From assembly GCF_964194025.1 (NCBI RefSeq), contig NC_134468.1, forward strand, positions 4,898,001-4,962,000: DNA of 64,000 nucleotides. Reading direction: 5' to 3'. A model generated the notes under the pieces. It was not told where the DNA came from. It did not search any database and worked only from the letters and a program-made list of their open reading frames with translations. This document shows positions 20,653-64,000 of the stretch, in pieces. The stretch is from Convolutriloba macropyga (lineage: Eukaryota). The stretch's first letter is position 1. The number at the start of each line of letters is the position of its first letter. The translations under genes and the position numbers were made by a program.

Positions 20653-20827
20653 GAATCTATTCTGTCCCCCCCCCAGCTTAGTGGGCTGATATTTTTACGC
20701 CCCCCCCCCAGGCGCACGTGCTATTTTGTTACATAGTAACGTGCTATATAAAGGCAAAAAATTTGTAACTGGGGGGTGGGAGCGTAAAAAACACTGGGGG
20801 GGGGGGGGGGGCGAAACCGAAAAGACC
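20653..20827. mobile_element. Poly-C/poly-G MITE (Merlin-like family), degenerate
   Basis: Same internal sequence as the intact copies (cagcttagtg..gcgcacgtgctatttt..tagtaacgtgctatata..ttgtaactgggg..aaacactggggg). Confidence 0.75.
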
Positions 20828-21232
20828 CCTTACAAAATTTGTTTGAGAGCACAGCAAATAAATAAATCTAGGTTTTGCTATTATATTAAAAAAATGAGAA
20901 GATTAAATTCAAGTAGCAACAAGAGTTATAATTTATAAATGATACAAAGTCATCAAATGCCCGCGAACAAACAATTATTGGCGATTTATCCTTCCTTCTA
21001 CTGATTGACGCAAAAGGTGGTTGATTGATATGGAGGTGATTGAGGAAGGCTACTGTCCTGCTGACGAATAGACTAGAATCCATTGCAGCGTCTTTTCCAT
21101 TCCTTTGATCAAGACTGCCACTATAATACACAATATAAATGATTGGACATTAGGTACACGATACGTAACCAATCAACCAAACTAATCTAAAAAAATATAG
21201 CCGCCATCGCCGTTTGCGAGCTGTGATATCTT

Positions 21233-21402
21233 GAATTTATTCTGCCCCCCCCCCCCCCCCAGCTTAGTGAGCATAATTTTTTATGACCCCCAGGCGCACG
21301 TGCTATTTTCTTACATAGTAACTTTCTATATAACTACATATAATTTGTAACTGGGGGGTCATAAAAACCACTGGGGGGGGGGGGGGGGAACAGAATCGAT
21401 CC
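21233..21402. mobile_element. Poly-C/poly-G MITE (Merlin-like)
   Basis: Flanked by 8-bp TSD GATATCTT (21225-21232 and 21403-21410); family-typical internal sequence. Confidence 0.85.
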
Positions 21403-21435
21403 GATATCTTCATAGACCTGCAGTATTAAAAAGCC

Positions 21436-21616
21436 GGATCTATTCCGTTTCAGCCCCCCCCCCCCCCCCAGTGTTTTTTTATGACCCCCAATTACAAATT
21501 ATGTGTTGTTATATAGCACGTTACCATTTAAGAAAATAGAACGTGCAACTGGGGGTCATTCAAAATTTATGCTCACTAAGCTGGGGGGGGGGGGGGGGGC
21601 AAAACAGAATAGATCC
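21436..21616. mobile_element. Poly-C/poly-G MITE (Merlin-like), opposite orientation to the preceding copy
   Basis: TIRs GGATCTATTC(C/T)GTTT..CCCC and GGGG..AAACAGAATAGATCC; perfect 8-bp TSD AAAAAGCC. Confidence 0.9.
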
Positions 21617-28177: not shown

Positions 28178-28726
28178 TCAGTCCATTAAATCGAAGTCAT
28201 CAACTTGCTCATTGTATGTTGCAATGTGACGCTTGTACTTGGAATTCTCAGTCCACGTGACCAAATCCTCACTCCTTCGGGTCACCAAAAATGCAGGATC
28301 AGTTACCAGTTCAGTTCCGACTTTGACATGACCATGTTCTATCATTTGAGTAGCGACTTGAACATCTTGGGCCATTTTCAGTTTTGTCATCACTACTGGC
28401 AGTCTTCGGCGGCAAAAGGAGGACACAGTTAACTTATCAACAGCAGCAAAACTCCTGTCAGAAGGAATAGCTCCCATCAAGTACAATTTCTGAACTAATC
28501 GGATGACGTTCACATTTCTGAATTTGTCATTCGTGTCAAGCTCTTTTAACTTTTCGGCTAATTTTCTAACTTCAGCTACCAGTTGCTTGTAGGCTATGTA
28601 CTCTTCGCGTTTTCTAAGGTTGTACCTACGCATTATTTTGAGAATGTGTTCATTATTGTCAATCTCCCAGTTGATAAAATCAACTTTCTTCAACAATTTC
28701 TGCTCGTGATGCTTCAGCTGTCTCAT
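28178..28726 (-). CDS. IMP3: U3 snoRNP protein IMP3 (S4 RNA-binding domain), 182 aa, intronless CDS
   Basis: MRQLKHHEQKLLKKVDFINW...SSFCRRRLPVVM..LKMA...A..MIEHGHVKVGTELVTDPAFLVTR..ED.VTW...IATYNEQVDDFDL matches the conserved IMP3 sequence end to end. Confidence 0.97.
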   Translation of the reverse strand: MRQLKHHEQKLLKKVDFINWEIDNNEHILKIMRRYNLRKREEYIAYKQLVAEVRKLAEKLKELDTNDKFRNVNVIRLVQKLYLMGAIPSDRSFAAVDKLTVSSFCRRRLPVVMTKLKMAQDVQVATQMIEHGHVKVGTELVTDPAFLVTRRSEDLVTWTENSKYKRHIATYNEQVDDFDLMD

Positions 28727-30627
28727 GTCCGATATCTGAAAAAAACTTGATAAAGAAAATTTGAATTCACATGAGGTTCCTCTTTTCTAGAGATACCCTT
28801 AAACTAGTGAGAAGTGATATATTGTCGCACACTTTGATTCGACCATTGTGTCATCATAGTATCAATACCAATAAGCATTAGAGATGGTAACTAAGAACAA
28901 AAATGCGAGTAACCTGCATCTAAAATTGGGCTTTATGGGTTTATCTCGTTTCTATTTCGGATTTCGTTTTTTGACACTTACTCTGTTCATTTTGAATTGC
29001 TTTGCTGACCAACTGCTTTCTAAAAACACTTTCAGCAGAATGAGAGAAGAGTGAAACTAGCCTAGAGAAGTAAAAAAGATTTCACGGAAAATGTTGAACA
29101 AGCTGTGAACTAAGGTAGAGCAAAAAAATTTTGTTCGACGAAGTAAAAAAACATAGCAGGACAAGTCCTGACGAACAATTCTAAGAATTTTCATTGACTA
29201 ACCAAAGAAACAACTAGACCAAGAACGGACTATGAGTGAATTGGGAAAACCATTTCTAAAAAAATCAGATAAAAAAACAGAAAATCAATGTCAAAATGCC
29301 ACATGTGAACAAAAAAATCACTAGCGAGAAATGAAATTTGGTTCAAACAAAAAAACTAGGCCTAGAACGAACTATGAATGGATTGGAAAACCCATTTGGA
29401 AAACAATCCGCTCCAAAAAACAAAAAAAATGAAAATCAAAGTGAAATTGTTGCATGTGAAAAAAAACCACTAGCGAGAAAGCGAATTTTTGTCCCAACAC
29501 CGTTTTCTAACTCTACTTTAAAATTAGAGCGAAAAAATTTCACGCCACAAAACCACTCGCTTTTTCACTCGACTTCCTGTTTCGGCGTGACCAAAATCAC
29601 TACTCCAATTTGACTTCAAAAATCATGAAAATGTGCGAAAAGATTTTTTTAAAAAAGACAGCATCCAAATACAATTCAAATTCTTCGAATTGTAAAAAGG
29701 AGCGCTATAATAGCCGGCTGAAAAGCTGAGGCAGCTATTAATCATATCAATAACTTGAAATTAGTTACAGAAATCAGAAAAAAAAACAGTTGGCGAGCGT
29801 CATAAACTCCACAGCAAAGCTGCTTTAGAGCCCAATTATGTCAAGAGCTGCACTTTCATTTCTAGTTAAGTCATACCAAATTTCGACATACTTTGAATTA
29901 GGCTAACATTCGGAAATTAGCATGAGAGCGCTAAAGAGAATGACTGATAAAAACAAATGAATAAAAATGTTTAAACCATCATTCCAGAGGTTAGAAGACA
30001 CACATAAAAAGTTAACTGCCACAAAATAGTTAACTTTTTATGTGTGCCTTCTGCAGTTGTCCAGTATAAAAACTAATGAAAAACTAATGAAGAGTGAGCT
30101 TCGTCTTGGAACAAGAGACTGGTGACAAAATTAAGCAGCAAGGACCGAGATGAGTGACTTTCGACAAATTGCAATATCTCCATCCTTTTATTACCTCGCA
30201 AGCGGTGAAACCTAATTTTTTATGCTCCTCAGCTAAGAGCATAATTTCCATAGTTTAGTAGATGACTCCGCAGAAATTTCATCAGCATGAAGTTATGTTT
30301 GCTGTCATTTCGAGTATTGTTTTTAAAAAATAAGAGTTTTTTTAGTGTGCTCAGTTGACTCCATTCAAATAACAGATCTGAATATTTTTCGAGGGGATAA
30401 ACTTAAAGAACATGCCTGTTATTTGTACTTGTCTCCTAGACGAGTAGGGAAGCCCTCCAATTCCTTTGCAAAATATTTTATTTTCACGGGAAAATTTTTT
30501 CTTCTATCGCTAAGTTTTCAGATACTTGTGCAAAAAACCCTTATCACGGAAATCGCAAATGAGCGGGAAAAGTTGAATATCACGTTAATTCATTTCTTGT
30601 GCACAACCGTAAGACATAGGAAAACAT

Positions 30628-35356: not shown

Positions 35357-35528
35357 GGATCTATTCTGTTTTGCCCCCCCCCCCCTCACTCAGTGTTTTT
35401 TTATGAGACCCAATTACAAATTAAATGTTGTTATATAGCACGTTACTATGTAAGAAAATAGCAAGTGCGCCAGGGGGTCATAAAAATTTATGCTCACTAA
35501 GCTGGGGGGAGAAAAACAGAATAAATCC
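35357..35528. mobile_element. Poly-C/poly-G MITE (Merlin-like)
   Basis: GGATCTATTCTGTTT TIR; 8-bp TSD ACATGGTT/AAATGGTT. Confidence 0.85.
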
Positions 35529-36235: not shown

Positions 36236-37127
36236 AAATGAAAAAAGATAAAATAAGAAATGCCCCACCCCAACATGGGGTGAATATTGGCTGGTCCGTG
36301 GCCCTCCCAGCACTACGTCCTCAGAAAGCATTTTGTATTGTTCAAATCTATCAATAAAATGATAATATATACAAACATCAGCTGAGAAAGACAAGACAGC
36401 ATTAGGAAACAAACAACTAATGGCGAAAGTAGAAGAGTCAAACTAACAACCTCCCGTTTTCAACTACAGCTCCCATTGAAGCATCGACAATTTCGCCCCG
36501 CCTAAGCGTCCTTGACCCACGAATGCAGAGGATGGAATTTCTTAGGACAGCAAAGCTGATTTTGTCCTCAGATATATAATATCAGCGAAACGGTACTCTT
36601 TTCGCGCAGAGAGCTTTGATGCGTTGTTTCACCGTTTTTGAGGCTGATTCGCAAGCTCCATTAGTGCATGCAAAGACAATCCGCGAAAGTGTTGTTTTCA
36701 CAACCTGTAATTCTTTGTTCATATTTGATCTTTTTAAAAGATTCATGGTACCTGTAAACTTCGCTAATGCTTTCAGGGCGACATTTTGTCAGCTGGTCGC
36801 CCTGAAAATTTTCGCATCAAAGTAGGTTTTGTTTAACCTCGATTCCCAAATTCCGTTGGCTTTGATATCTAATTTTGCATCATCATCATCATGTTGTCGT
36901 TGATTTAAGAGCAAAGGTTTCCCCTTGCAACGGCTGAAGATGAGGTTCGATCTCGACATCAAGACAGACATCACTTAGCAAGTTCGCAAAGGAATCGAGA
37001 AGTTCATTACGTCTAATGCTGGTGTACCCTAATTTCGGACAGTGGAGGACATGTGTCACAGTGAAGTTTTCATTGCATGCGCATAGTGATGGCATCTTCA
37101 CTGGGGCTCAGCGATAGTGAAGGGCAA
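36236..37127 (-). mobile_element. CRE-clade-like non-LTR retrotransposon 1, 3' part (Zn-knuckle and restriction-like endonuclease), decayed
   Basis: CACNENFTVTHVLHCPKLGYTSIRRNELLDSFANLL..EIEPHLQPLQGE..AKLDIKANGIW..TYFDAKIF corresponds to the CCHC knuckle, RHN motif and PD-(D/E)xK-type RLE region. Confidence 0.85.
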
Positions 37128-37556
37128 TGTGAGTGTCATACGTATATAAAAAAAGTTGTACTAAAAACCTTGGGTTTAAAGGTCAAAGCTTTAGTTTAAA
37201 TTTTAATCTATTACCTGATTAATGACTGACACAATCTTGATAGGTGTCGACAAATTGAAAAAGACAAGGCTCGGGCTCCGAGCAATATTAACAATTGTGA
37301 CATATCAGTATTTACTTGGTTAATTTACCACCGTGATAGAACCAATATTGGGTACGGACAAAACTGAGGATAAAACTCTTTCATTGAACACCAAACCTAC
37401 CTTCAGAGTTAATCACTCTATTAGATCTTCATTTATTTGAAACCATTCTCTTCTGCTCTTATCTACTTATTAATTAAACTTCAATCCTTGTATTTTGAAC
37501 AAGTACCACGCTCAATTACTAATGATAATAGATATTGCGCACGGGCTGCTGCTATA
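37128..37556 (+). repeat. 5' LTR
   Basis: tgtgag...gctgctata; about 95% identical to 46449-46876 (about 22-23 differences by manual count). Confidence 0.95.
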
Positions 37557-37557
37557 G

Positions 37558-37572
37558 TGGCGACAGAGATTA
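37558..37572 (+). promoter_or_regulatory. Primer-binding site (TGGCGACAGAGAT; primer tRNA uncertain, Ser/Arg-like)
   Basis: TGG, complementary to tRNA CCA, begins 1 nt after the 5' LTR end. Confidence 0.7.
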
Positions 37573-38030
37573 AAAGTAAATAGAAAACCACCATCCAATA
37601 ATATTGAGCGTTGTATTATTTTCCAAGAGAAATCTATGTTTTGTTTGAAAACTAACTTTTAAACTCGAGTTCGACGTCTTAACATCACGACCCGGAAGAG
37701 GAAATGTGGACTGCTGTCGGGATTCGACAAGAAAAATTGCCATCTTCGAACTTTCAAGTGAGTACTCCCTAAAAAATCGAATAGTATAAATCAGGGCGTA
37801 CATGTTTTTTTGATGATAAAATAGCGGTCAGAAACATCAGTATTTTAGTTTGACTTAATTTGAATTAAAATATACCATTAAACCTCGAGTTTTTTTGCAT
37901 TTATTGAAGAGGGAATTAGAGTGTCAATTATAATTAAAAGCTGTTAACTAGAGTGTTGGAAAAATAGTTCGAGTTTCGAACAGAATTAGTCAAAGATTTT
38001 GAATAACAACAGCTTTTAAATAAAATAGGG

Positions 38031-39061
38031 ATGGCGCGGCACTCCTCAAAAACGCTGTTACCGGAACCGTTTACTGGATCAAATGATTTTGAAAGTTGTG
38101 TTACACACTTTGAGCTCTTGTCACAATTACATAAGTGGCAAAGAAAAGAAACAGTAAGCGGCGCCGAGACCAAAATTGATGAACGGCCGCATTATTTCAC
38201 GTTGAGGTTACAAACGTCGGCTATTGATTTCTATCGTACACTTTCGGAGGACTCTAGAAAGAGTTATGACGAGACCGTAAAGGCTTTCAGACAACATTAT
38301 AATGAGAAACCAGTAGTGTTCCGGGGTAGGCTAGCAAAGAGAGTCCAGCAACCCGGTGAAAAATTAACAGATTTTCTCGGTGATTTGCAAACATTAGCTC
38401 TGAAAGCGTACCCCCAAGAGTCCACAGAGATAAGAGAACATCTCATTTTGAGGGGTTTCCTTGAAGGCATTGAAAATAGTCAGGTGCGGCTCTACTTGAG
38501 AAAGAACTTAGGTGACGCGGATATGACTTTAGACAGAGCTTTAGAGAGAGCTCTACATATAGAGGCAGTCACGAGAATTGAGGAGGAGGACAAGGAGCCG
38601 CGGGTTTCTGCCACCCAGTTAAAGAAAAATTCACAGTTACTTGATTCGATTAATGAATTTGTTAGAACATTGCAAACTAATCAACCTAATAGGCAAGAGA
38701 ATCAAAAGTTTTCATCTCAAGGAGCGCGGCCAAAAGAGTTTCTGCGCGGTAGTGAGCGAAGTTCAAGAGAAAACGGAGATAGAAATAGAAGTACTAATAG
38801 CTATACCAGAAGCAGCGCTGAGCATAGACGAACCAATTACGAAATTAGAGCTCGTTCGCCAACACCGGGAGGTGAGAACAGAAGCCGAGATCCATCGCAC
38901 GAGAGTCGTGCCGAGCAGTCGAAGGCAGCGGTGAGTTTCGAGAGAAAAAATGTTGCCGTTGCGGTCAGCGAAACCATGCATCTAGGGAATGCAAAAATTG
39001 TTTCAAATGTGGGAGCCCAAATCACTTCAAACGAAATTGTCCGTTTTTAAACGAGAACTAG
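38031..39061 (+). pseudogene. gag: Gypsy gag (capsid plus two CCHC zinc knuckles; one frameshift near 38945)
   Basis: PEPFTGSNDFE..HFEL..RVQQPGEKLTDF..LQTLALKAYP..FLEG capsid motifs. An alternate frame at the end gives CCRCGQRNHASREC and CFKCGSPNHFKRNC, then TAG at 39059-39061. Confidence 0.9.
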
Positions 39062-42000
39062 CTCGAAATGGCAGGGCTTCATTTTCAGCTGACTAAGTAA
39101 AAACCTTGCGTGGCGGAAACAGCCCAGTGGAGGCGTTGTTTGCAAAAATAATTATAAAAGACAAATTGGTAATGGCCTTAATTGATAGTGGAAGTAGTGT
39201 TAATATTATAAGCGACACACTCTACAAGCTATTGAGGGGCCCGAGCCAGATCAGAATGTGCAATAAAAATATAATAGCTGCCAACAACGGGGAAATTGCC
39301 TGTAATGGAGTCAGCAGATATTCAAATTCAACTTCAAAAATTTACATGTGAAATAACAGTTGAATTTCTAGTGACCAGAATTGAGAAAAGGCCCTGTTTA
39401 TTAGGCATGGAATTCTTATACAGGTTTGACTGTATATTAAACCCCAGAAAAAACGAACTGTTCTGCGGAAAATTTGGGAAAACTTCACAGTTGTCCCATC
39501 ACAACGAAGTAACAGAAACTTGTTTTTAATTGCGGAAGAGGATCACAATTTAACTTGTCGCTGCGAACTTCTCATTAAATGTAGTATTGTTGACGAAGAA
39601 GGTAACAAAGCACAACAAAATGAAATTATAGTCGGACACCTAAAGGAGTTTGAAGACAAATAACGTTTATTAATAGCGAGATCGCTAAAGGATATGGTTG
39701 ATGATGTAGTATGGGTTCGAGTTCTGAACCCTACAGTAGAACAAAAGAAAATTTACAAAAATGCGAGAATCGCATTTGCGGAAAACACTGAAAAGATTTC
39801 AAGAATACAGCAAAACAATCTTGACAATAATGCAAAATCAAGAGATGAATTTGACTTCAAGAAGCATGTAAACACAAGTTCAATGAATTTAACCTGTGAT
39901 GAAATGGCAAAAGTGAGGTCACTTTGCACAAAATTTGAAACAATTTTTTCGCGAAACTCAAACGATATGGGATTTTGCGATCGAATTCATCACAAAATTA
40001 AATTGAAAATGCCATTTCAGACGTACATACGGCAACTTGAGCTTTGAGAAACGAAAAGCCATGAAAAAAATTGTTGAAAACTTGGAACGAAATGACTTAG
40101 TTGAACCAACACACTCTGATTGGGCAGCACCATCATTACTGGTACCAAAAAAAGACGGAACCTACCGCTTAGTTGTAGACTACAGTGGTCTAAACAAACA
40201 AATAGAGAAAACCTGCTGGCCATTACCACGAATTAATGAGGTTTTTGATTCATTGGAGGGAAACATGTACTTCTCAAACATTGATCTTCTGTCGGGATAG
40301 TTTCAAATGGCGCTGGAAGAAGAGAGTCAAAAAGTAACAGTTTTTATAACACCTTTGGGCCTATATAAGTGGAAAAGGCTCCCTATTCGACTAGCTTCTG
40401 CACCAGGAGCTATTCAAAACCTAATGGAATTAATTTTTGCTGGTCTCTCTTACGAAGTAGCTTTAGTTAATCTAGACGACGTTATCGCTTTCAGAAGAAA
40501 TTTCGAAGAACATCTTAAACGGTTAGAGCTGGTTTTCCAACGTTTATCGGAGAATGGATTAAAGATTAAAGGATCAAAATGCAATTTCTTCCGAAAGCGC
40601 GTCAGCTTTTCAGGACATATTATATCTGAGAGTGGTGTCGAGGTCGACCAAGAGAAAGTAAGAGCGGTAGAAAGAATGAACGAATCATCATCCTTAAAAG
40701 ACGTCAGGGCTTTTCTGGGCTTTGTGGGCTTTTATCGACAACTTATTCCGGGTTTCGGAAAAACAGCAGAACATCTTTACAGGTTACTAAATAAATCAAA
40801 TAAATTTGAATGGAGTACAGAGTGCACAAGTGCGGTAGCACAGTTGAAGAAAAAGCTTTTGGAAGCCCCAGTTTTAGGATATCCAAACGATACGGATCCA
40901 TATACATTAACTACCGATGCATCATTGACACGCATCGGAGCAATTCTTACACAAAAACAAGGAACTGAGGATAGAGTTATTGCATATGATAGCAAAATTT
41001 GAGTAAAAGTCAACGAAACTACTCAGCAACTAAGCGGGAATTATTCGCAATTGTTCATTTCACCCATTATTTTGACAACTATATACTTGGTCAGCAATTT
41101 TTAATTATGACGGAACACAGGGCTCTCGTGTGGATCTATTGTTTTAAAGAACCAGACGGTATGGTCGCAAGATGGATAGAGAAACTTGAGCAATTTAATT
41201 TTGACGTCAAGTATAGAGCAGGTAAGAAATCCCACACATTGACTGTCTTTCGCGCATAAGCACAGAAGATGAGGAACAAACAGCTTTCGTTAGCGCTATT
41301 GCACTAGACGTAGAGCAAGACGATACCGACTATAGTAGTCGAGGTTGGCAGTTACACAAACTACAGAAAATAAAACTGCGAGATTCGCAGCAAAGTGACA
41401 ATATACTCAAAGAAGTATATTCATAGGTCAAAAACAAAAAAAGACCCGAATCACTGCAAATGAGAAACGGAGCTTCGAAGGAGTTATGGAAATACTGGGT
41501 TCAGTATAAAAAATATTTGTCTCATAGAAGGGATTTTGTATCGAAAACACCAAACAGAACCTAACTTAGAAACTGTTTACCAAATGCTGGTACCCTGGGG
41601 TAGAGTGTCCAATGTTCTTTAGCTGTTGCATGATTTGCCTAGCGCAGGACTTTTTGGTATAGAGAAAACGTACAAAAGGGCTTGCGAAAGGTTTCATTGG
41701 CCGTGCATGAGAAGGGACGTAAGAAATTGGATGAAAAGCTGTGACGGGTGCCTAAAAAGGAAAGGCACTAAACAGAAACATCGACATTCACTCACAAAAT
41801 AGAAACCTTGTCATCCATTTTGGCAAGTTTCTCTCGATATCATGGGTCCACTTCCGGAATACCAAGGAAAAAAAATACATTTTGCTTCTCTGTGATCAAT
41901 TCAGTAAGAGGTACGAAGCCGTAGCGTTAGCCAATAAGAGACAGAAACTGTGGCAAAAACGTTTGTTGAACACTGGATAGTGAGATTTGGCCAGTCAACC

Positions 42001-43102
42001 TACACAGTGAGGAAGGGTCAAATTTATGTTTAAATTGTTTTGTAGTCTTTGCAGTGAACTAGGAATTCAGAGGACATCAACAACATCCTACCACCCACAA
42101 GGGAACGCGATGATTGAACGAACAAATGGAACAATAGAAGAAAGCCTCTCCAATTATATAGGACAATACCAACACGAAAAGGACAAATTTTCTACCTTTA
42201 GCGATGATGGCTTATCGATCATCAATCCATTGTTTAGCAAAATATAGCCCAGCATATGTGGTATTGGGTTTTCCACTATCACTGCCTATAGACTGCATCT
42301 ATAGCACACCACAAACTGCAATATATGCCACACCAAGTGACTAAGTTTACTCAACGAAACAAAAACTACAGGAAACGCATCAGCTGATGCGAGAAAGTAT
42401 GGATGTTGAACAAGAACGCCAGAAGACCTATTACGATCGCAGTAAATATGGACCGAACTATAAGGTAGGAGAAGATGTGTTAGTTTTCAACCCAACGGTA
42501 GAAAAGGGAGAAACACAGAAAATTACTTCTGTTTATAGAGGACCATACAAATTGTTAAAATCATAAACGATTTGAACTTCAGGGTGGAAGATAAAAAGAC
42601 GAAGAAAGCTATTAAGGTCCATTATGACCGACTAAAAAAATATAAAACGCGAGAAAAACCATTTACGCTTGAGCCTCAGGCAAAACAAAAAACAACAGTT
42701 AAGTAGGAGAAAAACATTTCTTTGGAGAGCTCAGAGGACGATGATATAATTGAAATAGAATCATCCACAGACAGTGAAAGAAATCTGAACTCAGAAAATC
42801 AATCTGAAGCTGAGAATGTAAACAATTCACTAAATCCTACAAATGACAAGGTTGAAAATGAAACTAAAGAGTCAGAGCTAGAAACCCTTAAAGGGCAAGA
42901 GAAGGCAAACAAAATTGCCGAAGGAAGAGGTGGATCTTCTTCAAAACCTAAAGAGAAAGCTGGAAGGAAATCAGCACAAACAAAAATTCCAAAAGCGGAA
43001 AAAAGCCACCGGAAGGTAGTAGTAAAACAAAAAGCACTGAGGAAAAGGTTAATAGTGAAACAAAGGTGCCAAAAATGGCAACAAGATCCAGCAGCCGATT
43101 AA
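39046..43102 (+). pseudogene. pol: Gypsy pol (aspartic protease, RT, RNase H, integrase with GPY motif, charged tail); multiple stops and frameshifts
   Basis: ALIDSGSSVNII (protease); SDWAAPSLLVPKKDGTYRLVVDYSGLN..LPRI..NLDD (RT); LTTDAS..RNYSATKRELFAIV (RNase H); TTSYHPQGNAMIERTN (integrase); RGPY at about 42540. Confidence 0.93.
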
Positions 43103-43211
43103 AATCGGTACCTGAGAAACTAAAGAATTACTTTACTGAGCAAGATGATGAGTATTTTAGCAGTGAGGAAGCTGATGATGTTTTTGTTTCAGGAAAATTC
43201 GGAAAGAAATA

Positions 43212-45283
43212 ATGGAATCTAAAAGAAATGCGAGTTCATCCGGAGCATCGTGTGATGGAGTATCACTATGTTTGTATCTGGCAATGATAGCCATTTTCGC
43301 TTCTCCTTCACTTTGTATTAAATTATACGGCTATGATTTTGACAATATGGTATCAACTAAGATATTTTCTCTGGATCACAGTACAAACTGTGGTAACAAA
43401 ATTCGAGTATCGAAAACAACAGAAGAAGGTAGTTTGATGTATTTGATATATGCTGAGGTTCAAATTAAGACTTTGCATGTATGAAGCGGCATATACTGTG
43501 TCTGCACTTCAAAAGAGCAATGTATAAGACAATGTTGTCTTTATTACCAAAAATTCAAGACTCCTAAAATCCATATATCCATTAAACGAGGGAACTGTAG
43601 AAGCAATTGGCAAAACAAAAACTTCGCTTTACCGGGTTTTGGAGATAAAACCTTTAAAGTCAACAATTCAGTAACGGAATATATATTACAACGAGCAAGT
43701 GGAACCACTTATGTTGAGGAGCATAGCCAGAGCTTCATGAAGAAAATAATTGTAGAGGTGCTATGTAAGCTGAGCCTATAGAGTGGGTTTCACTTACAGG
43801 ATTAAAACTTGAAATGTGAAGATCAATGCAAAAATTTCCATCGGAACAATTTGGGGAAAGCTGCTACAAAGAAAACTCTTAAGCTTTAAGGATCCCCTAG
43901 GTTTTCCAAAAACTGTTTTCATCAAAACCGCACATTTTGAAGATGACTTAGTAAATGATTTTTTCAAAAATCAAGGCAAGCAAACTTGTCAATTTATTAA
44001 ACACTTTAACAAGGAGGACCATGCAAAAATTTTTGGTAACAACAAGACCACATCTATCAGCGGAAACATTTTACACAAAAAACAAATATGAAGATTTCGC
44101 TTTGGAAACTTTAGAGGAAAAAGCAATTTTGTGTGGACAACAGTTAAAAGTAACCAGAGTCCCAGGTGTTTTTTACTCCGAGAAAAATTCAGAACTGACA
44201 ACTGTTAATCTAAAAATAACCTTGGAAATGTTTCTGTCAAGTATTATCGACAGCTTTTAGTTCGATTTATTCGAAGAGAGGGAATTTTTTTCATGAACAT
44301 AAGAACGCTGCAATGTGAAATTCAACGACTGAGAATTCAAACAGTGATCGAAACATCAATAAACTTTGTGAGCCCTTCAGTAACACTCTTCGAGCCAGGA
44401 ACTCACGTTGAAAGAGCAGGATCTGTTTTGTATGTCCATAAATGTACAAAGATGGTAGCAACAAAAACTAAGCTTACTTTTTGTACAGAGGGAGTTCCGG
44501 TGTTAGTAGAAGGTCAAAATTTTTCTTTTATTAGGTATTTGGAACCCCTCACCAAAATTTTGTATCATATTTATACAATCGCTGCATGTAACCCGCTGTA
44601 CACAAATGTCGTCAAATTAGAAGACGGCAGTTTTCAATAATATGGAGAAACACTGAAGAAATTCGATCATGAAATATATCAATGCCGATGAATAATGACT
44701 TGAATTCTAGTGATCAAAATCTACATCGTAGACTTTTTTTCCCCATCAGATTTAAAAAAGAGTCAAATCGCTCGAACAATTCGCCACAATAGTAAAGGAA
44801 TTATCAGTCGAGAAGCGTTCCAAGACTCGGATTGAAAATACAATCTTGATAATTTTGTACATTGAAGCAACCAGTTTCAACAAGAAATTGTTTTTAGCAA
44901 AAGAAATAACGATTTTTTGTAACTTAAAAACTGAAAGCTTATACGTTTGGTTAAAAGCTAAGGACATTACTGTGTCAGTCTTAACAGTCTACCTCATATT
45001 CCAGTTTGTGAAAAATTTTCCTAAATTGTTCTTCTATTTAGGATTAGTCATTAATGGAGCATCCTGGCAACAATTGTTGCGGAATCTCGACCCTGTAACG
45101 GTAACACGTATGTATAATCAACTACTCAAATTAATTAATGAGCGCCGAGAACAAAAGAAAATGATTGAAGAGAGAGTCCTTGAAATAGTCGGTTGTTTAA
45201 ATAAAATAAAATTAGCAGTCTCTAGTTCAAGACCAAAAAAAATGAAAATGAGTTGTCTTGAGTTCAAGACAGAAAAAAAATGA
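43212..45283 (+). pseudogene. env: Envelope-like glycoprotein ORF (chuvirus-type fusogen-like), fragmented
   Basis: Signal peptide (VSLCLYLAMIAIFASPSLC) followed by LYGYDF..SL....C; LCGQQLKVTRVPGVF; LQCEIQR..PGTHVERAGSVLYVHKC..C.E.VPV..YLEPLTKIL..CNP; C-terminal hydrophobic segment (ITVSVLTVYLIFQF..LFFYLGLVI). Splice-acceptor-like TTTTTGTTTCAG at 43181-43192. Confidence 0.75.
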
Positions 45284-45385
45284 AAATGAGCTGTCTTGAG
45301 TTCAAGACCAAAAAAAATGAAATAGAGTTGTCTTGAGGTCAAGAACAATAAAAATAAAGGAAAAATCTTGAGATCAAGACTGAAA
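45215..45385 (+). repeat. Tandem repeat of about 38-40 bp (4-5 copies), each with hairpin GTCTTGA-GT-TCAAGAC
   Basis: aaaatgaaaatgagttgtcttgagttcaagac is repeated between env and the J-domain ORF. Confidence 0.8.
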
Positions 45386-45462
45386 ACATTGAGAAACTTT
45401 GGAAGCACAAAAGGTTCCCATTAAACATAGCAGGCAGCGCGACCCCACAAATTGGTGAATAT

Positions 45463-46319
45463 GTGTACTATATGGCGGAGTTGTGGAAAGTTATTTCGGA
45501 GATTTCCCCGAGAGTGTACCGAGTGGAATCTTGTCTGTCACGGACTTGGAAGGTGTCTACACTAGAACTTCTGGCTCACGCCAATATTCGGTCCCGAGCT
45601 CTGCAGACTGAAGTGGAACTGCAAAACCAGTGCGCGCAGTTATAGAAGTTGAAGAGTACAAACTCCAAAAAGATCTTGTGGAGCTTCGACAAAAACTAGA
45701 CAAACATTGCGACAAAGCCAAAGAGGCAACAAGAGAAGCATTGGGAAAACTGAGCGCCGAGTGTGAGGCGCTAAGAGATAACCTAAAGGCGGCGGCAGCT
45801 AGAAATGCCGAACAAGAGCAGTCAATCGTCTTACTTAAGCAGGAGTTGGCCGATCTAAAAGTCAATGTTGATAAAAAGAGCGAAGCCATGGAGAAAATGG
45901 AGAAAGAGAATGACCAATAGAGGTCAGAGCTTCGGCAGTTGGAAAACTATAACCACTACTTGGCGAGTGAGTGCCGAAAGAAAGACAATATAATCGATAG
46001 ACAAAAGCATTCTTTGAAGAACGAGAAAGCCAAAACGAAGGCCACAGAAAAATGTTCATTCGAGATTTGGAATAAAAATGTATTTAATCGGCCTGCGACA
46101 TTGTACGAGATTTTGTTGGTAAAAAATTCTGCTTCAAAAGATCAGATCAAAAAACACTACCACAAAATGAGCTTGTTGACGCACCCTGATGCTGGTGGAG
46201 ATGAGTTTTTCAAGACCATTAATCGAGCATACCAAATACTGATGAACGATGGGGCGCGAGGAGCGTACAACAATTTTGGGCTGGACGAGGCAGAGAAAGT
46301 CATGAATTACAAAAACTGA
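45463..46319 (+). pseudogene. Proviral ORF4: coiled coil plus C-terminal DnaJ/J-domain
   Basis: The 45630-45920 coiled-coil ORF and 45939-46319 are in the same frame, separated by one TAG. The J-domain reads TLYEILLVKNSASKDQIKKHYHKMSLLTHPDAGGDEFFKTINRAYQILMNDGARGAYNNFG, with HPD at 46182-46190. Confidence 0.88.
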
Positions 46320-46436
46320 TACCTAACCTTTTTATACGACAAGTACAAACTTTTCGTATTTTAGAACGTTCATGCATCAAGAATTGTAAAATTTGTTTGA
46401 TTTTTATGTGAGTGAGTGGCACACTCTGTCCTTATT

Positions 46437-46448
46437 GAGAGGGGGAAG
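46437..46448 (+). promoter_or_regulatory. Polypurine tract
   Basis: GAGAGGGGGAAG directly abuts the 3' LTR. Confidence 0.9.
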
Positions 46449-46876
46449 TGTGAGTTTCACACGTATATAAAAAAGGTGTACTAAAAACCTTGGATTTCAA
46501 GGTCAAAGATTTAGTTTAAATTTTAATTTATTACCTGATTAATGACTGACACAATCTTGATAGGTGTCGACAAATTGAAAAATACAAAGCTCGGGCTTCG
46601 ACCAATATTAACAATTGTGGCACATCAGTATCTACTTGGTTAATTTACCACGGTGATAGAACCGATATTGGGTACGGACAAAACTGAGGATAAAACTCTT
46701 TCATTGAACACCAAACCTACCTTCAGAGTTAATCACTCTATTAGATCTTCATTTATTTGAAACCATTCTCTTCTGCTCTTATCTACTTATTAATTAAACT
46801 TCAATCCTTGTATTTTGAACAAGTACCACGCTCAATTACTAAAGATAACAAATATTGCGCACGGGTGGCTGCTATT
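46449..46876 (+). repeat. 3' LTR
   Basis: Direct repeat of 37128-37556, followed by TSD GCAA. Confidence 0.95.
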
Positions 46877-48434
46877 GCAATGCTATCACGAAACTCGTTT
46901 TTTCGTTAGGTCAAAGTGATATCGTTTCAATGGCCTAGCTTTCAACCAATTTGATGCTCCTTTTTCACTAGATAAGTCAAGTGAGAGAATCCTGTTCTTA
47001 TTCAATTCGGTCTTATATTAGTCTTTTTTGATTTGATACCGAGCTCTTTCCCCTTTTTATTTCCTGTATGATCTGTTGTTGCTTTAGTTCGGCTTCGGGC
47101 GAGATAGGGATAAGGGACTTCTAGGTGAACTGATCGCTCATAACCCCTAAAACTGTCTTCAGGTTTGAGGATGTTCGGGCCAACCTCCCTTATCGCCAAC
47201 GAAAAGAAGGTCCGGTGTTTTTGATTATAGGCGGGATTCTTTATTAGATTAGGCGAAAACTCATCGTTGATTGATCTAACATTCGTCTAACTGGCCTTCA
47301 GTATTGGGTGTTGTACGAGCTAAGAAGGTCAATTCATGCTGAACCAATGAAGTGAACGATTTATGAAGATTTTGAGGTGAAATATTATGAACGGCCAGCT
47401 TTTTCAACAACAATTTCTGCTGTTAAAGTGATCTTTCTACAAAATTTGCTGCGTTAAAAGAACCTATTATACTAAGTACTCTACAACTGTTAACTATTTG
47501 CTCTTGGTCGTGAACAAAATTCTGCTGTGCTTTTCCAAAAAGATGTTCTTGGGTAATGATGTGGCATTTGGTAAGATGGTAACCGAACCGACTGTGTTTT
47601 TTCGGTGAGCCAAAATGCTTTTTCAAGTTATCAGGAGAGCCGACAGCGTTGCCATCGTCTGTATACCACTTTTGAACGTTGAAGCAATCGTCGGAAAATT
47701 CAATTAAGAGGATATTGACAATTCCATACATCGACATCTCAAGGAGATTGCCCTGGGTTGTACCTTCCTGAGAGAACATTGTTTGTTTTTTAACAAATTG
47801 ATGTTTCACGATAAAAATTGCTTACGGAAACATAGAGTGAAGTGCATAATTGCCCAATGTTTTGTTAAGGCAAGATCACGGTTGAGATTATTTTTGCGTC
47901 GATAAGCAAAATCGCCTCCGAACCAGTGTTTTTAATGAATGAATTGCATGTTCAATTCTTTCCCTTCACCTTTCAATTCATCCTCAATTTTGACCCATAC
48001 ATGGTTGCTGATCACTACCTTGAATTTTAAGGTCAGTTTTAATACATTTGAAAACAGTTTTTTAATCGTTCGTACCACGGATTAATTACCCCAGAGCTAT
48101 CAACCGACATGAATTATACGAAGAAGGAAAATCAAATGAGACGTAGCTAAACGTAATGCTAGTTTAGCAGTCGTTTGCATAGATCAGTTGAGGGCAACCC
48201 AAAGGATGTCAGAAGATTTCGCACTTTGTTGGCATCCAGGCAGGAAAGTCACTGCCTTCCATGGCAGACTTTCTAAACATTGAGGCATTGAGTTTGTCAA
48301 ATATGGATTGATGGTATGGTTAATTTTTTTGGATGTTCATTATTTACCAGGTAATTCAAATTTGCACTGCTTGGTTCCCGATGTTTTTCGCGTAACATCA
48401 AGAACTGTTTTCTTATCAACGTTGTCATTTCTAG
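46877..48434 (-). mobile_element. CRE-type non-LTR retrotransposon 1, 5' part (RT), 5'-truncated and decayed
   Basis: SQEGTTQGNLLEMSMYGI..VQKWYTDDGNAVG..RFGYHL matches CRE-type RT motifs; it continues 36236-37127 across the LTR element. Confidence 0.85.
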
Positions 48435-49440: not shown

Positions 49441-50197
49441 GATTTGGAAATGCGTTAATACCGAGTTTTCAGAAGTCAACCTTTGCACATGGCAGTTTTA
49501 CTGTCACTGCAACCCGTGCAGTAACAAGTAGACACTTTTAGATTGAAGGAAGAGGACCCTGCAGCTGTGTGTTGCGAAACCACATCATCAACAACAAACG
49601 CCTAGCTCTTAGCAGTGTTAATATCTCTCCCATCAGTGTGAAAATTTTGCATGAAAAACTCCGGATCTTTTCTGTTTCGGCCACTCCAGCTTAGTGAGCA
49701 TAATTTTTTTATGACCCCCAGGCGCTCCTGCTAGTTTCTTACAAAGTAACATAAAGTCTTACAAATTCCAATAAAATCTCTCTCAATGTAGCTGGCTTTG
49801 CATCTACCGTCAATAGTGAGGCCAGTAATACATCAAAATGAACAAGATTCTCGACTTTGAATCTAACTTGTATTTTGTGTTAGTAGTAACTTTTCTCTGC
49901 CTCTTATTTGATGTACGTTTGTGGGTGAAAAAAGAAAAAAACCTCGGGTCTCAATAGCAGAGATGTACTCCAGTTTTTAATTTAATACTTGATTTTTGGC
50001 CGTCAAAATGTTGACAGGTGTCAAAGAAATTTAATTGAGAATTGATGGAAAACAGAACTCAGGCTTTGCGCCATATCAACAAATCTGACGTATTAGTGCC
50101 CAGGTTGAGGTGACATCCCGAACAGACATCTGCTCAGCAGACCAAGTTGAAAGCACACGTTGAGTTCCCAGACCAAATTTACAGGGTCTGGGATTTG

Positions 50198-50372
50198 GGA
50201 TCTATTCTGTTTTGCCTCCCCCCCCAGGGTTAGTGAGCATAAATTTTTTATGACCCCCAGGAGCACGTGCTATTTTCTTACATAGTAACGTGCTATATAA
50301 CATAATTAAATTTGTAACTGGGGGTCATAAAAAACACTGGGGGGGGGGGGGGGGGCGAAACAGAATAGATCC
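50198..50372. mobile_element. Poly-C/poly-G MITE (Merlin-like)
   Basis: Intact TIRs GGATCTATTCTGTTT and AAACAGAATAGATCC; perfect 8-bp TSD GGGATTTG. Confidence 0.9.
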
Positions 50373-50586
50373 GGGATTTGGTTCGAGCGCACAATAGTAT
50401 GATCAGAGGTCATTCGGTCTGGGGATGGTAAGATCAGAGAAGATTTTGAGCGCAATAAACTCCTAATGATTGCGATAAATTTAATATATAGATGACCAAA
50501 TGTGAGAATGCGGTCAACTAAATTTACTAGAGAACTCAATCGATTTCAAACAATTACCCGAACTTGATGAGCTATTACGTTCCCTA

Positions 50587-51095: not shown

Positions 51096-51119
51096 CTAGA
51101 CGTTAAATTTTTGGCTAGG

Positions 51120-52860
51120 AAGTTCTCTTGACGAAAAATGGCTGTACATCAACGTTCCAGTTGGAGAGGCTATAGATATTGCTCTAAGAGAACTCTATTT
51201 AAGCAACCTAGCTCCAGATATCCCAAAATCCGCCATGAAAAAGTTGCTAAAGCTTGCGGTGACAAATGTTCATTTCAAATGTAATGGGATTTGGTATGTA
51301 CAATCAGATGGTCTAGCAATGGGTGCATCACTCGCTGTATTACTAGCAAACGTATGGAGGACATCGTTTGATGCATCACTGCAAAAACCAGAGCACAGTG
51401 AAAATTTTTCCAGATCCGACCAAAACGGGAAGTGCAGTGACTGTAACCGGAGAGTGACTTTCCGAGGAAGAGGAGTAGAATGTGAGTCATGCAAAAACTG
51501 GTTTCATGCAAGATGCCAGAAGATATCGATTGAGGAAAACGCCAACATGCAGGATGAAATTGTTTAAAAGGAAGGTGGAGGATTTTATCTGCACGGTTCG
51601 TGGTGACCCGGACGTGTTTTTAAAATTTGCTAATCCACTACACAACAACCTGCAATTTACATTAGAAAAAGTTAACATGGAAGGGGATTTGGCTTTTCTT
51701 GACATTAACGTAAATGTGAACAGCAAAAGTAATATCACCTGCTATTGGTATCAAAAAACAACTGACACTGGAAAAATACTGAATTTTTGCAGCTGTGCAC
51801 CGCTTCAGCATAAGAAAAATGTGATTCAAGGGATGTTTCATAGGGTTTTTAATGCAACCTCTAATTGGTAGGCCTTCGATCAGGCTCTTGAAAAAAATGA
51901 AACTTGCTGGACCAAAAATCAATATCCAGAGGAATGGTCTTCAAAAATAGTGAAGCAGACTCTAGAAAAGATAATAAGTGGCGGTAAAGAACATTTGGGA
52001 ACAACACCAAAGGAGCATCAAAAATGCAGGAATAGATCTTATGATCAGCCAATTTTTTTTCTAAAATACAGAGGCAACCTTACAAACTTTGCCAGCAAAT
52101 TGAAAAAACTATGCTAATTGCAAGTGGCTTTTACAACGCAGAAGTTAAGATTATTCCTCCCCACACTGAAATCATCTTTCGATAGAGACCTGAAATCCCA
52201 CGTGGTATATGAGATTAAATGTAATGAATGTGGATCCATCAATGTTGGGCAAACAAGCCGGCATGTTACCACAAAGATATCAGAACATCAAAAGAAGGAT
52301 TCACAGTGGGTCAACATCTGGTTGAATTTCGTGTCGCAACGAAAGACATTGAATAGAAAATTTTGGACGCCTGTCGGACAGTAGAAAAACTAATGATTAT
52401 CGAAGCTATATACATCAGCAAGCTGAAGCCTGCTTTAAGCACACGCGATGAATATAGGGATTGGGAACTCACCTTAAAATATTAGTTCAAATTATAATTT
52501 TGACTAGATGAGGATACATAGGGCAAAGAATTTTGTGCATGACAAACCGAAATTGGCAAAACCTCCACAAGAGGGCTACTTAACTTTAGGGCAAACTCAG
52601 AATGACCCTTAAAATACAAGAACATGGCCAAAATCGAAAAATCCGGAATAGAAATGTTTCTAAATAAATTGATAACAGATGTAAATATGAGTTGTAAAAA
52701 GGCTAATTAGTGTATATAAGGAAGAATTTTTGATTGAATTTTTTAGAATAATTCCTAGAATTGTTTTAAGTGTGGTCTCAAACAAATCTAAATACATATT
52801 CATTTTACCTACAGTTTTAACCTGACGATGAACGTAAAGTTCGAAAACGTTTGTTTCAAA
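51120..52860 (+). mobile_element. Penelope-like element (RT plus GIY-YIG endonuclease), 5'-truncated, with a PHD-finger-like insert in the RT
   Basis: LYINVPV.EAI; FKCNGIWYVQSDGLAMGASLAVLLAN; FKRKVEDF (RYVDD equivalent); LQFTLEK..LAFLD..WYQKTTDTG; SHVVYEIKCNECGSINVGQTSRHVTTKISEH (GIY-YIG). Confidence 0.9.
52818..52856 (+). ncRNA. Probable minimal hammerhead ribozyme in the Penelope 3' UTR (degenerate)
   Basis: CUGAcGA (52822-52828), stem II GAAC-gtaaa-GTTC, GAAA (52843-52846), then palindromic ACGT. Position fits PLE hammerheads; the cleavage triplet looks mutated. Confidence 0.5.
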
Positions 52861-56300: not shown

Positions 56301-57705
56301 CAAGAATCTAGCCATTCAGTTTTGAAACACGTTGATTTAGTGGTAACGGAGAGAGACCAGAAATCTTCTATTTTCTTTGTTAATGTTTAATTTGTAAATT
56401 TAATTGCTTGTATGCCGTTTGACTAAATATACAGCTGCTTGTATATAGGATACAGTTAGTCAAACTAATTTGTTTTTNNNNNNNNNNNNNNNNNNNNNNN
56501 NNNNNNNNNNNNNNNNNNNNNNNNNNNNNNNNNNNNNNNNNNNNNNNNNNNNNNNNNNNNNNNNNNNNNNNNNNNNNNNNNNNNNNNNNNNNNNNNNNNN
56601 NNNNNNNNNNNNNNNNNNNNNNNNNNNNNNNNNNNNNNNNNNNNNNNNNNNNNNNNNNNNNNNNNNNNNNNNNNNTTTTATTTTTTATGGAGTTTTTTCA
56701 AGCAATCCAAAAATCAGTTTTCAAACCATGTGTCTGTCCTAAATTTCAATTTACAGACCTGTTTTTTTAAATTAAAGTCTGTCAGCGTCATCGCTTTTTG
56801 CAGACCATTTAGAAACAAAGACAATTTGTAGAAACCTAAACTTCCGAGATGACAACCTGAAAAATCATATATTTCTGAATTCCAGTGGCGGTTGTAGTCA
56901 AATTTTTCCGAGTCTTGTCTCACTTGTTACGTTTTTCGGACAGAGCATTTTTTAATCAAATTTTAATATAGCTGTATTAAGCAAACACTCAGATGTTTTT
57001 CAATATTACTTTTTGCTTGTTCTATTTTGTCATTGAAATCTGAGCTTTGATAGGAAAAACGGCTCAATGGCATTTAAAATGAAATTGATAAAATTAGGTG
57101 CCTTAATTAACATAGATAAGTTGTCCGTTTATTTTGCTAGATCCCTTAATTACTAGCGAACATTAAGATAAATTTTTTGAATAATCAGATTTGAATTGAT
57201 ATCATAGTGTATCGCGATTCAAAAGTGCACACAACTTTTAAAATATAATGGATTTTGCGTTTGTGTCCCCTCCCTCCACTCCAGCTTACTGGGTGCATAT
57301 TATTTGCAAACCCCAGTCGCACGTGCCATATTTTTACATCATGATTTACTATGTAATGGCACGTGCTCTGTAACTTGGGCTGCATAATGCACTGGGGTGG
57401 TGGGGGGGGGGGAGAGCAAACGGAAAAGATCCGTTTTAGCATATAAAATCTCATTAGAATAATAAGACATTTTTCAGAAGACCGTTTTATGTCTGTATTA
57501 TTTGATAGGTAATCTTCAAACCCTTTATCTTTCAAATATAATTATTTAAGTCACGTGCTTTGGGTGCAATGAAGTTGATAAGTGCGAATAGGAAGTTTTG
57601 TTTTTTTCTCATCGTGCTCTGTGATTAGTTTTGAGTTGCTGCTTTTGTTTTGGTTACGTCTTCTGAATGGCGCAGGATTTCATTCCACCAAAATGTCCAC
57701 CAAAT

Positions 57706-60763: not shown

Positions 60764-60788
60764 CTGGAAAAAAAGCAGTTGATAAATC

Positions 60789-60958
60789 GGATCTATTCTG
60801 TTTCGGCCCCCCAGTGTTTTTATGACCCCCCGTTGCAAATTATATGTTGTTATATAACGCGTTACTATGGAAGAAAATAGCACGTGCGCGTGGGGGTCAT
60901 AAAAGATTTATGCTCACTAAGCGGGGGGGGGGGGGGGGGGGCAAAACAGAATAGATCC
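60789..60958. mobile_element. Poly-C/poly-G MITE (Merlin-like)
   Basis: Intact TIRs; TSD GATAAATC/GAAAAATC. Confidence 0.88.
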
Positions 60959-61820
60959 GAAAAATCGAATCTATTGTTTCGTCCCGCGTTTTTGTTACCA
61001 CTCTTATAATCTATGTTCTTACTAGCAAAAAGCAAAAAGAACAAATTATCGGTACGTCGAAGGGGGGGGGGGGCGTAAATGTTATATGTCAACTAAGATG
61101 GAAGAGAAAAAGAATAGATCCGAGAATTCTACTAAACAATGTCTGTTCTAAAGAACAGAAAGATAGTTATCGAACGGTCGCAGCTGAAAGAAAAATTGTT
61201 TTGCGACGAATTAGTCAATTTGCAGGCCAAGGCAGCTAGAATCTTGAGTTCACTGCCCCTTGTAATCTGACAATTAGAATATATTGTTAAAATTGTCATG
61301 TATTCTCTAATCTGATAGTTAGTAAATATAGGAAATTTTTTCTGCTAGCGTCCCACCAGCCCTATATAGCCGTTACTTAACACCCCCTGCCCCCCCCCCC
61401 CAAAAAAATTCTAAGTTTTCGTGAGTTGTAAGAGCGATATTTGCATTTCATTGAAAAAAGTGTGTCTAGGTAGACTGAAGGCACTTTTAGAGTAGTTTCG
61501 CTAAGAAAATTTTAAAATCGAGCTCTTATTGTAGCCGATAACAAGAAAAATGATATAATACAGAACTTTTTATTAACGCAACAATTTATGCAACAAATTT
61601 TCGTCGAGATATGTAATACTTTCAAACTATAGCTAGGCTAGCTTTTAATAAATGCATATTATTCATATATGTTCATGTATAAATTTACTTACCTTTAACA
61701 GTATGTTTATACATGTACAAATGGGGGTTACAACACTAAGCGGGAGGGGGGCTAGCAGAAAGGATTCATTATTGGAAACCGTATAATTTTAGACACGACA
61801 TCCAGGAATTCATGCAATGC

Positions 61821-62610: not shown

Positions 62611-64000
62611 TGTAATTAGCTGAACCATTCATATTGCACAAAATGTCTGTCAAGCCAAACGGACTTTTTGCCATCCAGCAGGACGGGAACTATCCCGTTC
62701 TGAGAACTATATATAGAAAAGAAAGCATCACAACTTTGAGGAATTAAGAACTAACAACTCAGAGAAACTGAGAATCTAATATCTCCAAATTGAGAAAAGT
62801 AATCTCAAAACAAAAGTAATTCGAATCGGAATTGCCAAACTCCTTCTCAACTATATCGAATAACGAATAGTTAGAGATATCTTCAAGTCAGGACTTTATT
62901 CAAAAGAGAATAATAAGTTACTGATAAGTTAATAACGTTTTTACAAATATTCCGACCCTTTCCCTTTTTACAAGTTAGATTTAATAACTCTAAGTGCAAC
63001 TCTTATAATTATACCATTAGTGCTGTAAATTATCTATGTTAAACTTTTACAAATCATATACAAATCTTATAACTAGAATAATTAGTCAAATTTACATATT
63101 TAAATCCTTAAGTAATTTCATGAGACTTATCAGGCTTAGAAAGATAGCGTATACTAGGAGTAAGACCATCGAGTCAGAAGTTTAAGTTTGAACCTTCGCA
63201 CCCCCCTACCCTCTAGTATAAACTGGTGCGACCAGTGAGGCACGCATAAATATTCTATCTTCTAAGTACTGTATTCAGTTTTAAAATATAAACCAAGTTA
63301 ATGGCCTCAGGCGGAGGAACTGGAAGTTGCACCGGTACTGGTGGCACTGGTACTGGAACAACCGGTACCGCTACATTAGTAAGAACACTTACTGATACAC
63401 CTCTCTCCCATCCGAATATGTCACTTGTTACATTCTCGGGAAATGACCCCAGACAAAACGCGAATGAATTTTGGAGTTCTGTAGAACAAAAAATAAACTT
63501 CTCTTTGGGCACAACGTTACCTACAGATGCTGCCGCTTTAACAAATCACCACAATAGACGCAAAGCGCTATTTGGATCTTTACTAACAGAAACCGCATTA
63601 GAGTGGTTCAATACTATTGACCCCACAAGAACCCTGGATCAAATAAAAGGAGATTTCATAACCCGGTTCACAGATAGTCGTGACCAATTCAAATATCGAC
63701 TTGAAGTTGAAGGTGCCACCAGGCACGAAGGGGAACTAATTAAAAATTATTTCCACCGAATTAAGCATGCTGTTGATAGAGGATGGCCTGAAGAAATACC
63801 CGCACGATTAGCTGATCCTGGCCAAATTGCCACTGAACGAACAATACAGCAGAGACAAAGAGAGCAAAAATACATTGACTTTGCTATCAGAGGTCTACAG
63901 CCCCCATCTCTAAAGCGCAAGGCGTATGAATATAGGATAGAAAATCCGGATAAAACTTGGGACGAAATACAAAATCATTTAATAACAAAGGACTTAACAT
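62611..64000 (+). mobile_element. 5' end of a second Ty3/Gypsy-like element (putative LTR to about 63220, PBS-like TGGTGCGACCAG at 63224, gag)
   Basis: PBS-like motif 77 nt upstream of an ATG-initiated ORF. The LTR start is uncertain because no partner LTR is in the window. Confidence 0.65.
63301..64000 (+). CDS. gag: Gypsy-type Gag, open to the window end
   Basis: MASGGGTG..TFSGNDPRQNANEFWSSVEQKI..RRKALFGSLLTETALEWF..IKGDFITRF..GELIKNYFHRIK..RG: retrotransposon capsid pattern, no stop in 233 codons. Confidence 0.8.
   Translation, partial: MASGGGTGSCTGTGGTGTGTTGTATLVRTLTDTPLSHPNMSLVTFSGNDPRQNANEFWSSVEQKINFSLGTTLPTDAAALTNHHNRRKALFGSLLTETALEWFNTIDPTRTLDQIKGDFITRFTDSRDQFKYRLEVEGATRHEGELIKNYFHRIKHAVDRGWPEEIPARLADPGQIATERTIQQRQREQKYIDFAIRGLQPPSLKRKAYEYRIENPDKTWDEIQNHLITKDLT

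Follow-up and report, generated by a model that had tools for sequence, protein, structure and literature searches.

An env-like open reading frame directly downstream of a retrotransposon pol gene raises the question of where its product came from. The locus lies in a 64,000-nucleotide stretch of the Convolutriloba macropyga genome, hereafter the window. The original prediction held that the frame encodes a chuvirus-type glycoprotein rather than an errantivirus F protein, that a Gypsy element had captured it independently, and that it is indirect evidence of past chu-like virus infection of the host lineage. We consider it highly probable that this broken env, carried by a multi-copy Ty3/Gypsy element, is a predicted fusogen of class III (gB/chuvirus type) that belongs to a long-standing env-bearing lineage and is not a recent capture from a chuvirus.

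The element and its copies in the genome

The order of the pol domains and the LTRs confirm that the glycoprotein gene sits in a Gypsy element. This Ty3/Gypsy LTR element occupies positions 37128-46876 of the window, and its genes and LTRs are read on the forward (+) strand. It is flanked by a GCAA target-site duplication (37124-37127 on the left, 46877-46880 on the right); a 4-bp duplication was present in four of the five elements for which both ends were located, out of seven examined. The 5' LTR (37128-37556) and the 3' LTR (46449-46876) are 94.9% identical over 428 nt and have TG...TA ends in place of the usual TG...CA. A PBS-like sequence starting with TGG (37558-37568, +) lies just 3' of the 5' LTR and follows it in the same or nearly the same form in all seven elements, and a polypurine tract (46437-46448, +) precedes the 3' LTR. 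The internal region begins with gag (38007-39058), which carries one frameshift here and ends in a CCHC zinc knuckle in unbroken copies, and a broken pol (38986-43209) with protease, RT, RNase H, then integrase, in Ty3/Gypsy order. Profile matches to Ty3-type domains in this order (PR-RT-RH-IN) were obtained with the natural copy L081 and also with fragments from the window. A BEL/Pao identity of the element was rejected, since its pol domains are Gypsy-type and no Pao peptidase A17 accompanies them.

Pol is followed by env (43212-45200, +), the putative gB/chuvirus-type class III fusion glycoprotein gene, which is broken here and encodes 666 aa in unbroken natural copies. Tandem repeats of 37-38 nt (45199-45348, +), present in L081 too, separate it from a fourth open reading frame, ORF4 (45415-46319, +), which is broken in the window by one frameshift and two stops. 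The motifs on which the original prediction was built are all present, scattered across three frames: GYDF at 43329, followed by SL and a cysteine, CGQQLKVTRVPGVF at 44132, CEIQRL at 44314, PGTHVERAGSVLYVHKC at 44395, CTEGVPV at 44482, LEPLTKIL at 44539 and ACNPLY at 44584. Of the span first proposed for env (43212-45283), the start stands and the end does not. The natural end maps at about 45200, and the frame ending at 45283 is too long because it reads on into the tandem repeat. The proposed signal peptide corresponds to a hydrophobic leader at residues 18-36 (mean hydropathy 2.0). A hydrophobic stretch is also found where a C-terminal transmembrane segment had been placed, but it is modest in the window (1.3-1.4), the peak reaching 1.56 in an unbroken copy of the window family (family A) and 2.2-2.3 in two sister families; both leader and membrane anchor were judged by hydropathy only.

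The window env family has at least 41 matches over 1.2 kb in the 1.18-Gb genome, a lower bound, as 40 of 646 candidates were scored. The window copy shares approximately 92% identity with one group of copies and 88% with another, younger one, within which copies agree at 96-99%. LTR pairs of the younger family-A copies are 97.9-99.8% identical. An uninterrupted env frame of 677 codons was found in 5 of the 30 copies fetched, and none of the five family-A elements read end to end has an unbroken pol. Compared with an unbroken natural copy, the window env has accumulated 10 indels that shift the frame and 7 stops in register, and this copy is dead.

Env was under purifying selection during the spread of the family. 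Variants common to at least three copies have a pN/pS of 0.20 and singletons one of 0.92 (Fisher p 6e-18; 29 of 30 loci, L010 being dropped as a near-duplicate of L009), and shifted-frame controls gave 1.1 and 1.9. The same test on shared variants of the integrase region gave a pN/pS of 0.19.

Family and predicted fold of the glycoprotein

An unmodified fragment of the window (44209-44637) matches the Pfam family PF24664 (Monjiviricetes_fusion) with an E value of 6.2e-8 and 31.5 bits, above the cut-off of 27, so the env observation is not a product of chance. PF24664 was found in 18 of the 19 members of the env alignment, and other viral Pfam families were found in none. In the window-family env the match spans only positions 256-565 of the 653-position profile and scores 29-40 bits, compared with 132-162 bits for three other env families of the same genome (F-H, described below). 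Eight cysteines of env are invariant wherever they are covered among 12 relatives at 24-33% identity.

The further env protein analyses were queried with unbroken natural copies, including the fold comparison by which the original prediction was to be checked. The ectodomain model was built from a 65-sequence alignment and reached a pLDDT of 66.7, good over the N-terminal two thirds and poor over the C-terminal third; a single-sequence fold (pLDDT 31.9) was set aside. Against a library of viral structures, the ten best matches had E values of 5e-20 to 7e-16 at 11-14% identity. Nine of these ten carry names, all of them glycoproteins of negative-strand RNA viruses: four from chu or chu-like viruses, two from xinmoviruses, one from a qin-related virus and two from unclassified ones. 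The highest-placed herpes gB in this library stands at rank 20 (E 1.4e-10), and herpes gB accounts for all 37 PDB matches listed by Foldseek (best E 7e-10). In a VIA ranking, made with an independent aligner, gB was again first with a Z of 7.3, followed by rhabdovirus G (6.1 and 5.7) and thogotovirus GP, values that lie under 8 and are not conclusive by themselves. Low TM-scores (0.14-0.37) were obtained against both viral and PDB targets. Atlas matches of the ectodomain (0.83-0.88), which serve as leads only, are headed by class III glycoprotein clusters and include a flavivirus cluster at 0.86. Sequence searches with the unbroken env gave no match in the word index or in the PDB, and no relatives were found in metagenome contigs or viral contigs.

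Taken with the PF24664 match, the fold matches, to chu-, xinmo- and related glycoproteins and then to gB, bear out the assignment of env to the chuvirus/gB type of class III rather than to the F proteins. As modelled, env is thus a predicted gB/chuvirus-type fusogen of class III, with chuviruses not singled out. An F-type identity was also considered and found no backing, as the envs lack a furin site (the motif R-x-K/R-R is present in none of eight) and PF24664 is the sole viral Pfam match. F-type env and phlebovirus Gc are likewise absent among the fold matches listed (50 viral rows and 37 PDB rows), although absence from those rows does not by itself exclude a fold family. Elsewhere in the genome, weak Baculo_F matches of 27-28 bits, barely above the cut-off, were noted at G000:C4:61113555-61113893 (L178) and two other places; on the strength of these, an F-type env may be present in the same genome too.

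The glycoproteins of Chuviridae, Xinmoviridae and related Monjiviricetes share with the window env an above-cut-off PF24664 match, the best structural matches and a common Cys/Gly/Pro pattern in the C-terminal half. The window env differs from them in that its profile match is confined to that half and in being encoded by a retroelement, in which no nucleoprotein or L gene was seen. By comparison with other class III fusogens, Env would be a trimer led by a signal peptide, anchored at its C-terminus and able to fuse membranes. By fusing the envelope of a particle to a target cell it would likely allow particles to move from cell to cell, plausibly, as with Drosophila gypsy, from somatic cells into the germ line.

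Capture or inheritance

The window family is one of at least eight gB-type env families in the genome (A-H), the others being at least seven further PF24664-positive families. The seven studied (L077, L079, L080, L093, L095, L097 and L099) each lie 3' of a Gypsy-type pol, five by Pfam domain order and two by RT similarity, and several are very young, with LTR pairs 99.3-100% identical. One of them has dozens of near-identical copies. At the end of the window (63292-63999, +) a gag start is 60% identical to the gag of a family with an 898-codon env and may mark the beginning of a second env-type Gypsy element.

Across the eight families, RT and env identities are correlated (rho 0.73, a value reached by 120 of 10080 sampled permutations), a correlation that leans on one deep split, with the RT tree unresolved within A-C. 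Both trees separate F-H from A-E, and both pair D with E, for which RT is 74% and env 61% identical. Families A, B and C are 76-79% identical in RT and only 26-37% in env, and the env of A is not nearer to B or C than to D or E. Exchange of env between families, or differences in rate, are possible readings of this pattern. At least eight recently active gB-env families in one genome constitute a natural test set for co-divergence of env and pol versus exchange.

Envs of this type are not peculiar to this host. Chary and Hayashi (eLife 2026, PMC13524379), working with a set of 1,512 elements, report gB-type env in Gypsy elements of many phyla, describe the glycoprotein as Chuviridae-like and argue for an ancient origin; the same paper notes that gypsy pol, too, has as its neighbour the Chuviridae-like glycoprotein known from BEL/Pao elements of mosquitoes. 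As set out in that source, the HSV/gB-type errantiviruses resemble the window family in their gag-pol-env order, Gypsy pol, LTRs and multiple copies, and in a class III env that has a leader, conserved cysteines and a C-terminal anchor and requires no furin site (PMC13524379). A chuvirus-like, gB-type env beside a Gypsy pol is therefore a described and widespread class that is probably ancient, and the window env is a further member of it.

Dezordi and colleagues reportedly described in 2020 a BEL/Pao element, Anakin, with a chuvirus-derived glycoprotein. Anakin and other BEL/Pao elements share with the window element the combination of an LTR retrotransposon and a chuvirus-type glycoprotein, and differ from it in being BEL/Pao elements of mosquitoes whose glycoproteins fall within those of Jingchuvirales in trees (as given in PMC10084718), whereas the window element is Gypsy. 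The window env is set apart from Anakin by description, its own identity to viral glycoproteins being 11-14% in structural alignments.

These results bear directly on the proposed capture. Chuviruses as the specific source are not supported, as the top viral structures are mixed and distant. Nor does a new, independent capture find support, given that the class has already been described and at least eight families coexist in the genome. A recent event in particular is not supported, given the known, probably ancient class, the 11-14% viral identity, the broad tracking of RT by env across at least eight families and the purifying selection on env. An older event would take a different form: a negative-strand RNA virus infecting the host lineage, either chu-like (Jingchuvirales) or a relative of such viruses, may have supplied the glycoprotein to the ancestor of A-E, separately from F-H and from the gB-type elements of other animals. 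The nearest viral structures are indeed glycoproteins of negative-strand RNA viruses (E 1e-16 to 1e-20), well before herpes gB, and the envs of A-E are only 14-18% identical to those of F-H, so that two acquisitions are possible. Dezordi et al. (2023, PMC10084718) count six endogenisations of Jingchuvirales glycoproteins, with Gypsy fragments on the flanks of some. The sequence relatives of env are all unnamed, one full-length match being 99.9% identical to a family in the host genome, and the genome also holds an array of viral polymerase fragments (see below). We nevertheless regard such a capture as unlikely. Chuviruses do not top the structure list, the window-family env scores lower on PF24664 than F-H do, and its relatives were not found in viral contigs. 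The envs within A-E have diverged to 26-29% identity, so any capture would have to be very old. The viral structure library holds no retrotransposon envs, and its ranking therefore cannot prove viruses to be the nearest kin.

A genome-wide search for mononegavirus-type L (RdRp) gave 29 matches, the best at 305 bits, all in one array of approximately 58 kb on a single strand (G000:C6:9645606-9703203, L167-L177). The best solved relatives of the fragments are rhabdovirus L proteins, with weak scores. Judged from these fragments, the array is evidence of past infection by a Monjiviricetes-type RNA virus, and it is not tied to env: none of the 354 ORFs in the surrounding 80 kb encodes a gB-type glycoprotein, which counts against capture from that source. 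A non-LTR endonuclease ORF lies before the array, and an uninterrupted BEL/Pao polyprotein of 2038 codons lies right after it. The suggestion that env records a past chu-like infection thus survives only in part; env remains weak evidence of it, since neither a chuvirus source nor independent capture is supported and at least eight env families are present. The long-standing env-bearing lineage is the reading we retain, and the window env adds one host to a known class without demonstrating chuvirus capture.

The J-domain gene ORF4 and other features of the window

ORF4 consists of a short conserved N-terminal segment, a coiled coil and a C-terminal J (DnaJ) domain with an intact HPD motif (46101-46271, +). 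The window frame at 45921-46316 matches PF00226 with an E value of 1.9e-15, and the PDB matches are to Hsp40 J domains (best E 1.4e-11); the best Atlas match, 0.78, is a lead only. Families A, B and C all have an HPD-bearing ORF4 3' of env, at 27-31% identity; in family C, for which a single copy was read, a stop precedes the J domain. In family B, shared variants of ORF4 have a pN/pS of 0.26 compared with 1.22 for singletons (p 7e-15), and the J part gives 0.25 (p 9e-5), with shifted-frame controls at 1.3 and 1.8. This test drew on 60 of 150 matches, namely the top 20 and another 40 spread over lower identities, and left out one identical copy. Judged by this conservation, these elements carry ORF4 as a genuine, conserved gene.

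ORF4 might instead be a passenger that derives from a fragment of a host DnaJ gene, acquired by accident and of no use to the element. Its J domain is like those of ordinary Hsp40 proteins, the other five of the eight families have an unrelated downstream ORF without a J-domain match, and the selection test in the window family is not significant (shared pN/pS 0.44, p 0.14). Against this, the HPD and the whole layout are retained in three families despite their divergence, the J domain is C-terminal to the coiled coil in one intron-free frame, and in family B each of the three parts of ORF4 is under strong purifying selection, shifted frames serving as controls. The family B test largely refutes the passenger reading, to which we give very little credence. 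The balance tips slightly towards the view that this enveloped Gypsy lineage encodes its own coiled-coil/J-domain Hsp70 co-chaperone, maintained by selection in three deeply diverged families, which would turn host Hsp70 to particle assembly or uncoating.

The HPD of a J domain stimulates the ATPase of Hsp70, so ORF4 would bring host Hsp70 to the partner of its coiled coil. ORF4 has no obvious leader and likely acts in the cytosol as a J-domain co-chaperone. Through its coiled coil it would be attached to the particle or to proteins of the element itself, where the HPD would trigger host Hsp70, by analogy with other J domains most likely aiding assembly or uncoating of the particle. Retroelements are thought to rely on borrowed host chaperones, and a conserved J domain of their own would give a direct, testable handle on an Hsp70-dependent step of the retroelement cycle. 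The baculovirus protein Ac51/BJDP is a candidate analogue of ORF4.

Virus-encoded J domains are known from polyomavirus T antigens and from 11 RNA virus families (10.1101/2022.02.15.480533). Like ORF4 they are self-encoded, and roles in Hsp70-mediated folding or particle assembly have been proposed for them in that work; they differ in lying within a T antigen or polyprotein, whereas ORF4 is a separate ORF after env in an LTR retrotransposon, with the J domain C-terminal to a coiled coil. Bdelloid LTR elements resemble the window element as Gypsy elements with extra captured ORFs 3' of pol (Rodriguez et al. 2017, PMC5408684). Their cargo is different, a GDSL esterase, a DEDDy exonuclease or an F-type env, and the terms 'DnaJ' and 'J domain' do not occur in the available text of that paper. 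'DnaJ' is likewise absent from the main text and seven supplementary files on the HSV/gB-type errantiviruses (PMC13524379). No description of a retrotransposon-encoded J domain was found in the literature searched, Repbase and subscription journals lying outside the search. The element with its J-domain ORF4 is the novel part of this locus, though it may be annotated in Repbase. If the co-chaperone reading is true, no J-domain accessory gene would have been described in an LTR retroelement before ORF4, which would parallel the polyomavirus T antigen. Most of the further gB-env families possess a downstream ORF; several of these seem coiled-coil-rich and one is Cys-rich.

As for the host, its COX1 is read with invertebrate mitochondrial code 5, ATA and AGA falling at conserved Met and Ser positions, and a search run with no positive control gave no R&R cuticle-protein match, which only hints that the host is not an arthropod. 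Beyond the element, the window holds a host-like, intron-free gene with ribosomal S4-type domains (28181-28786, -), which we take to resemble IMP3, and an open frame of 383 codons without a Pfam match (17564-18712, -). Decayed RT-like frames were recognized by eye at 51100-51868 (+), possibly from a Penelope-like element; the first contains a PHD/C1-like finger, the sole profile match there and one below or near the cut-off. A MITE-like family of dispersed inverted repeats with G/C-run ends occurs at 20665-21604, 35371-35528, 49663-50379, 57274-57411 and 60767-60980.
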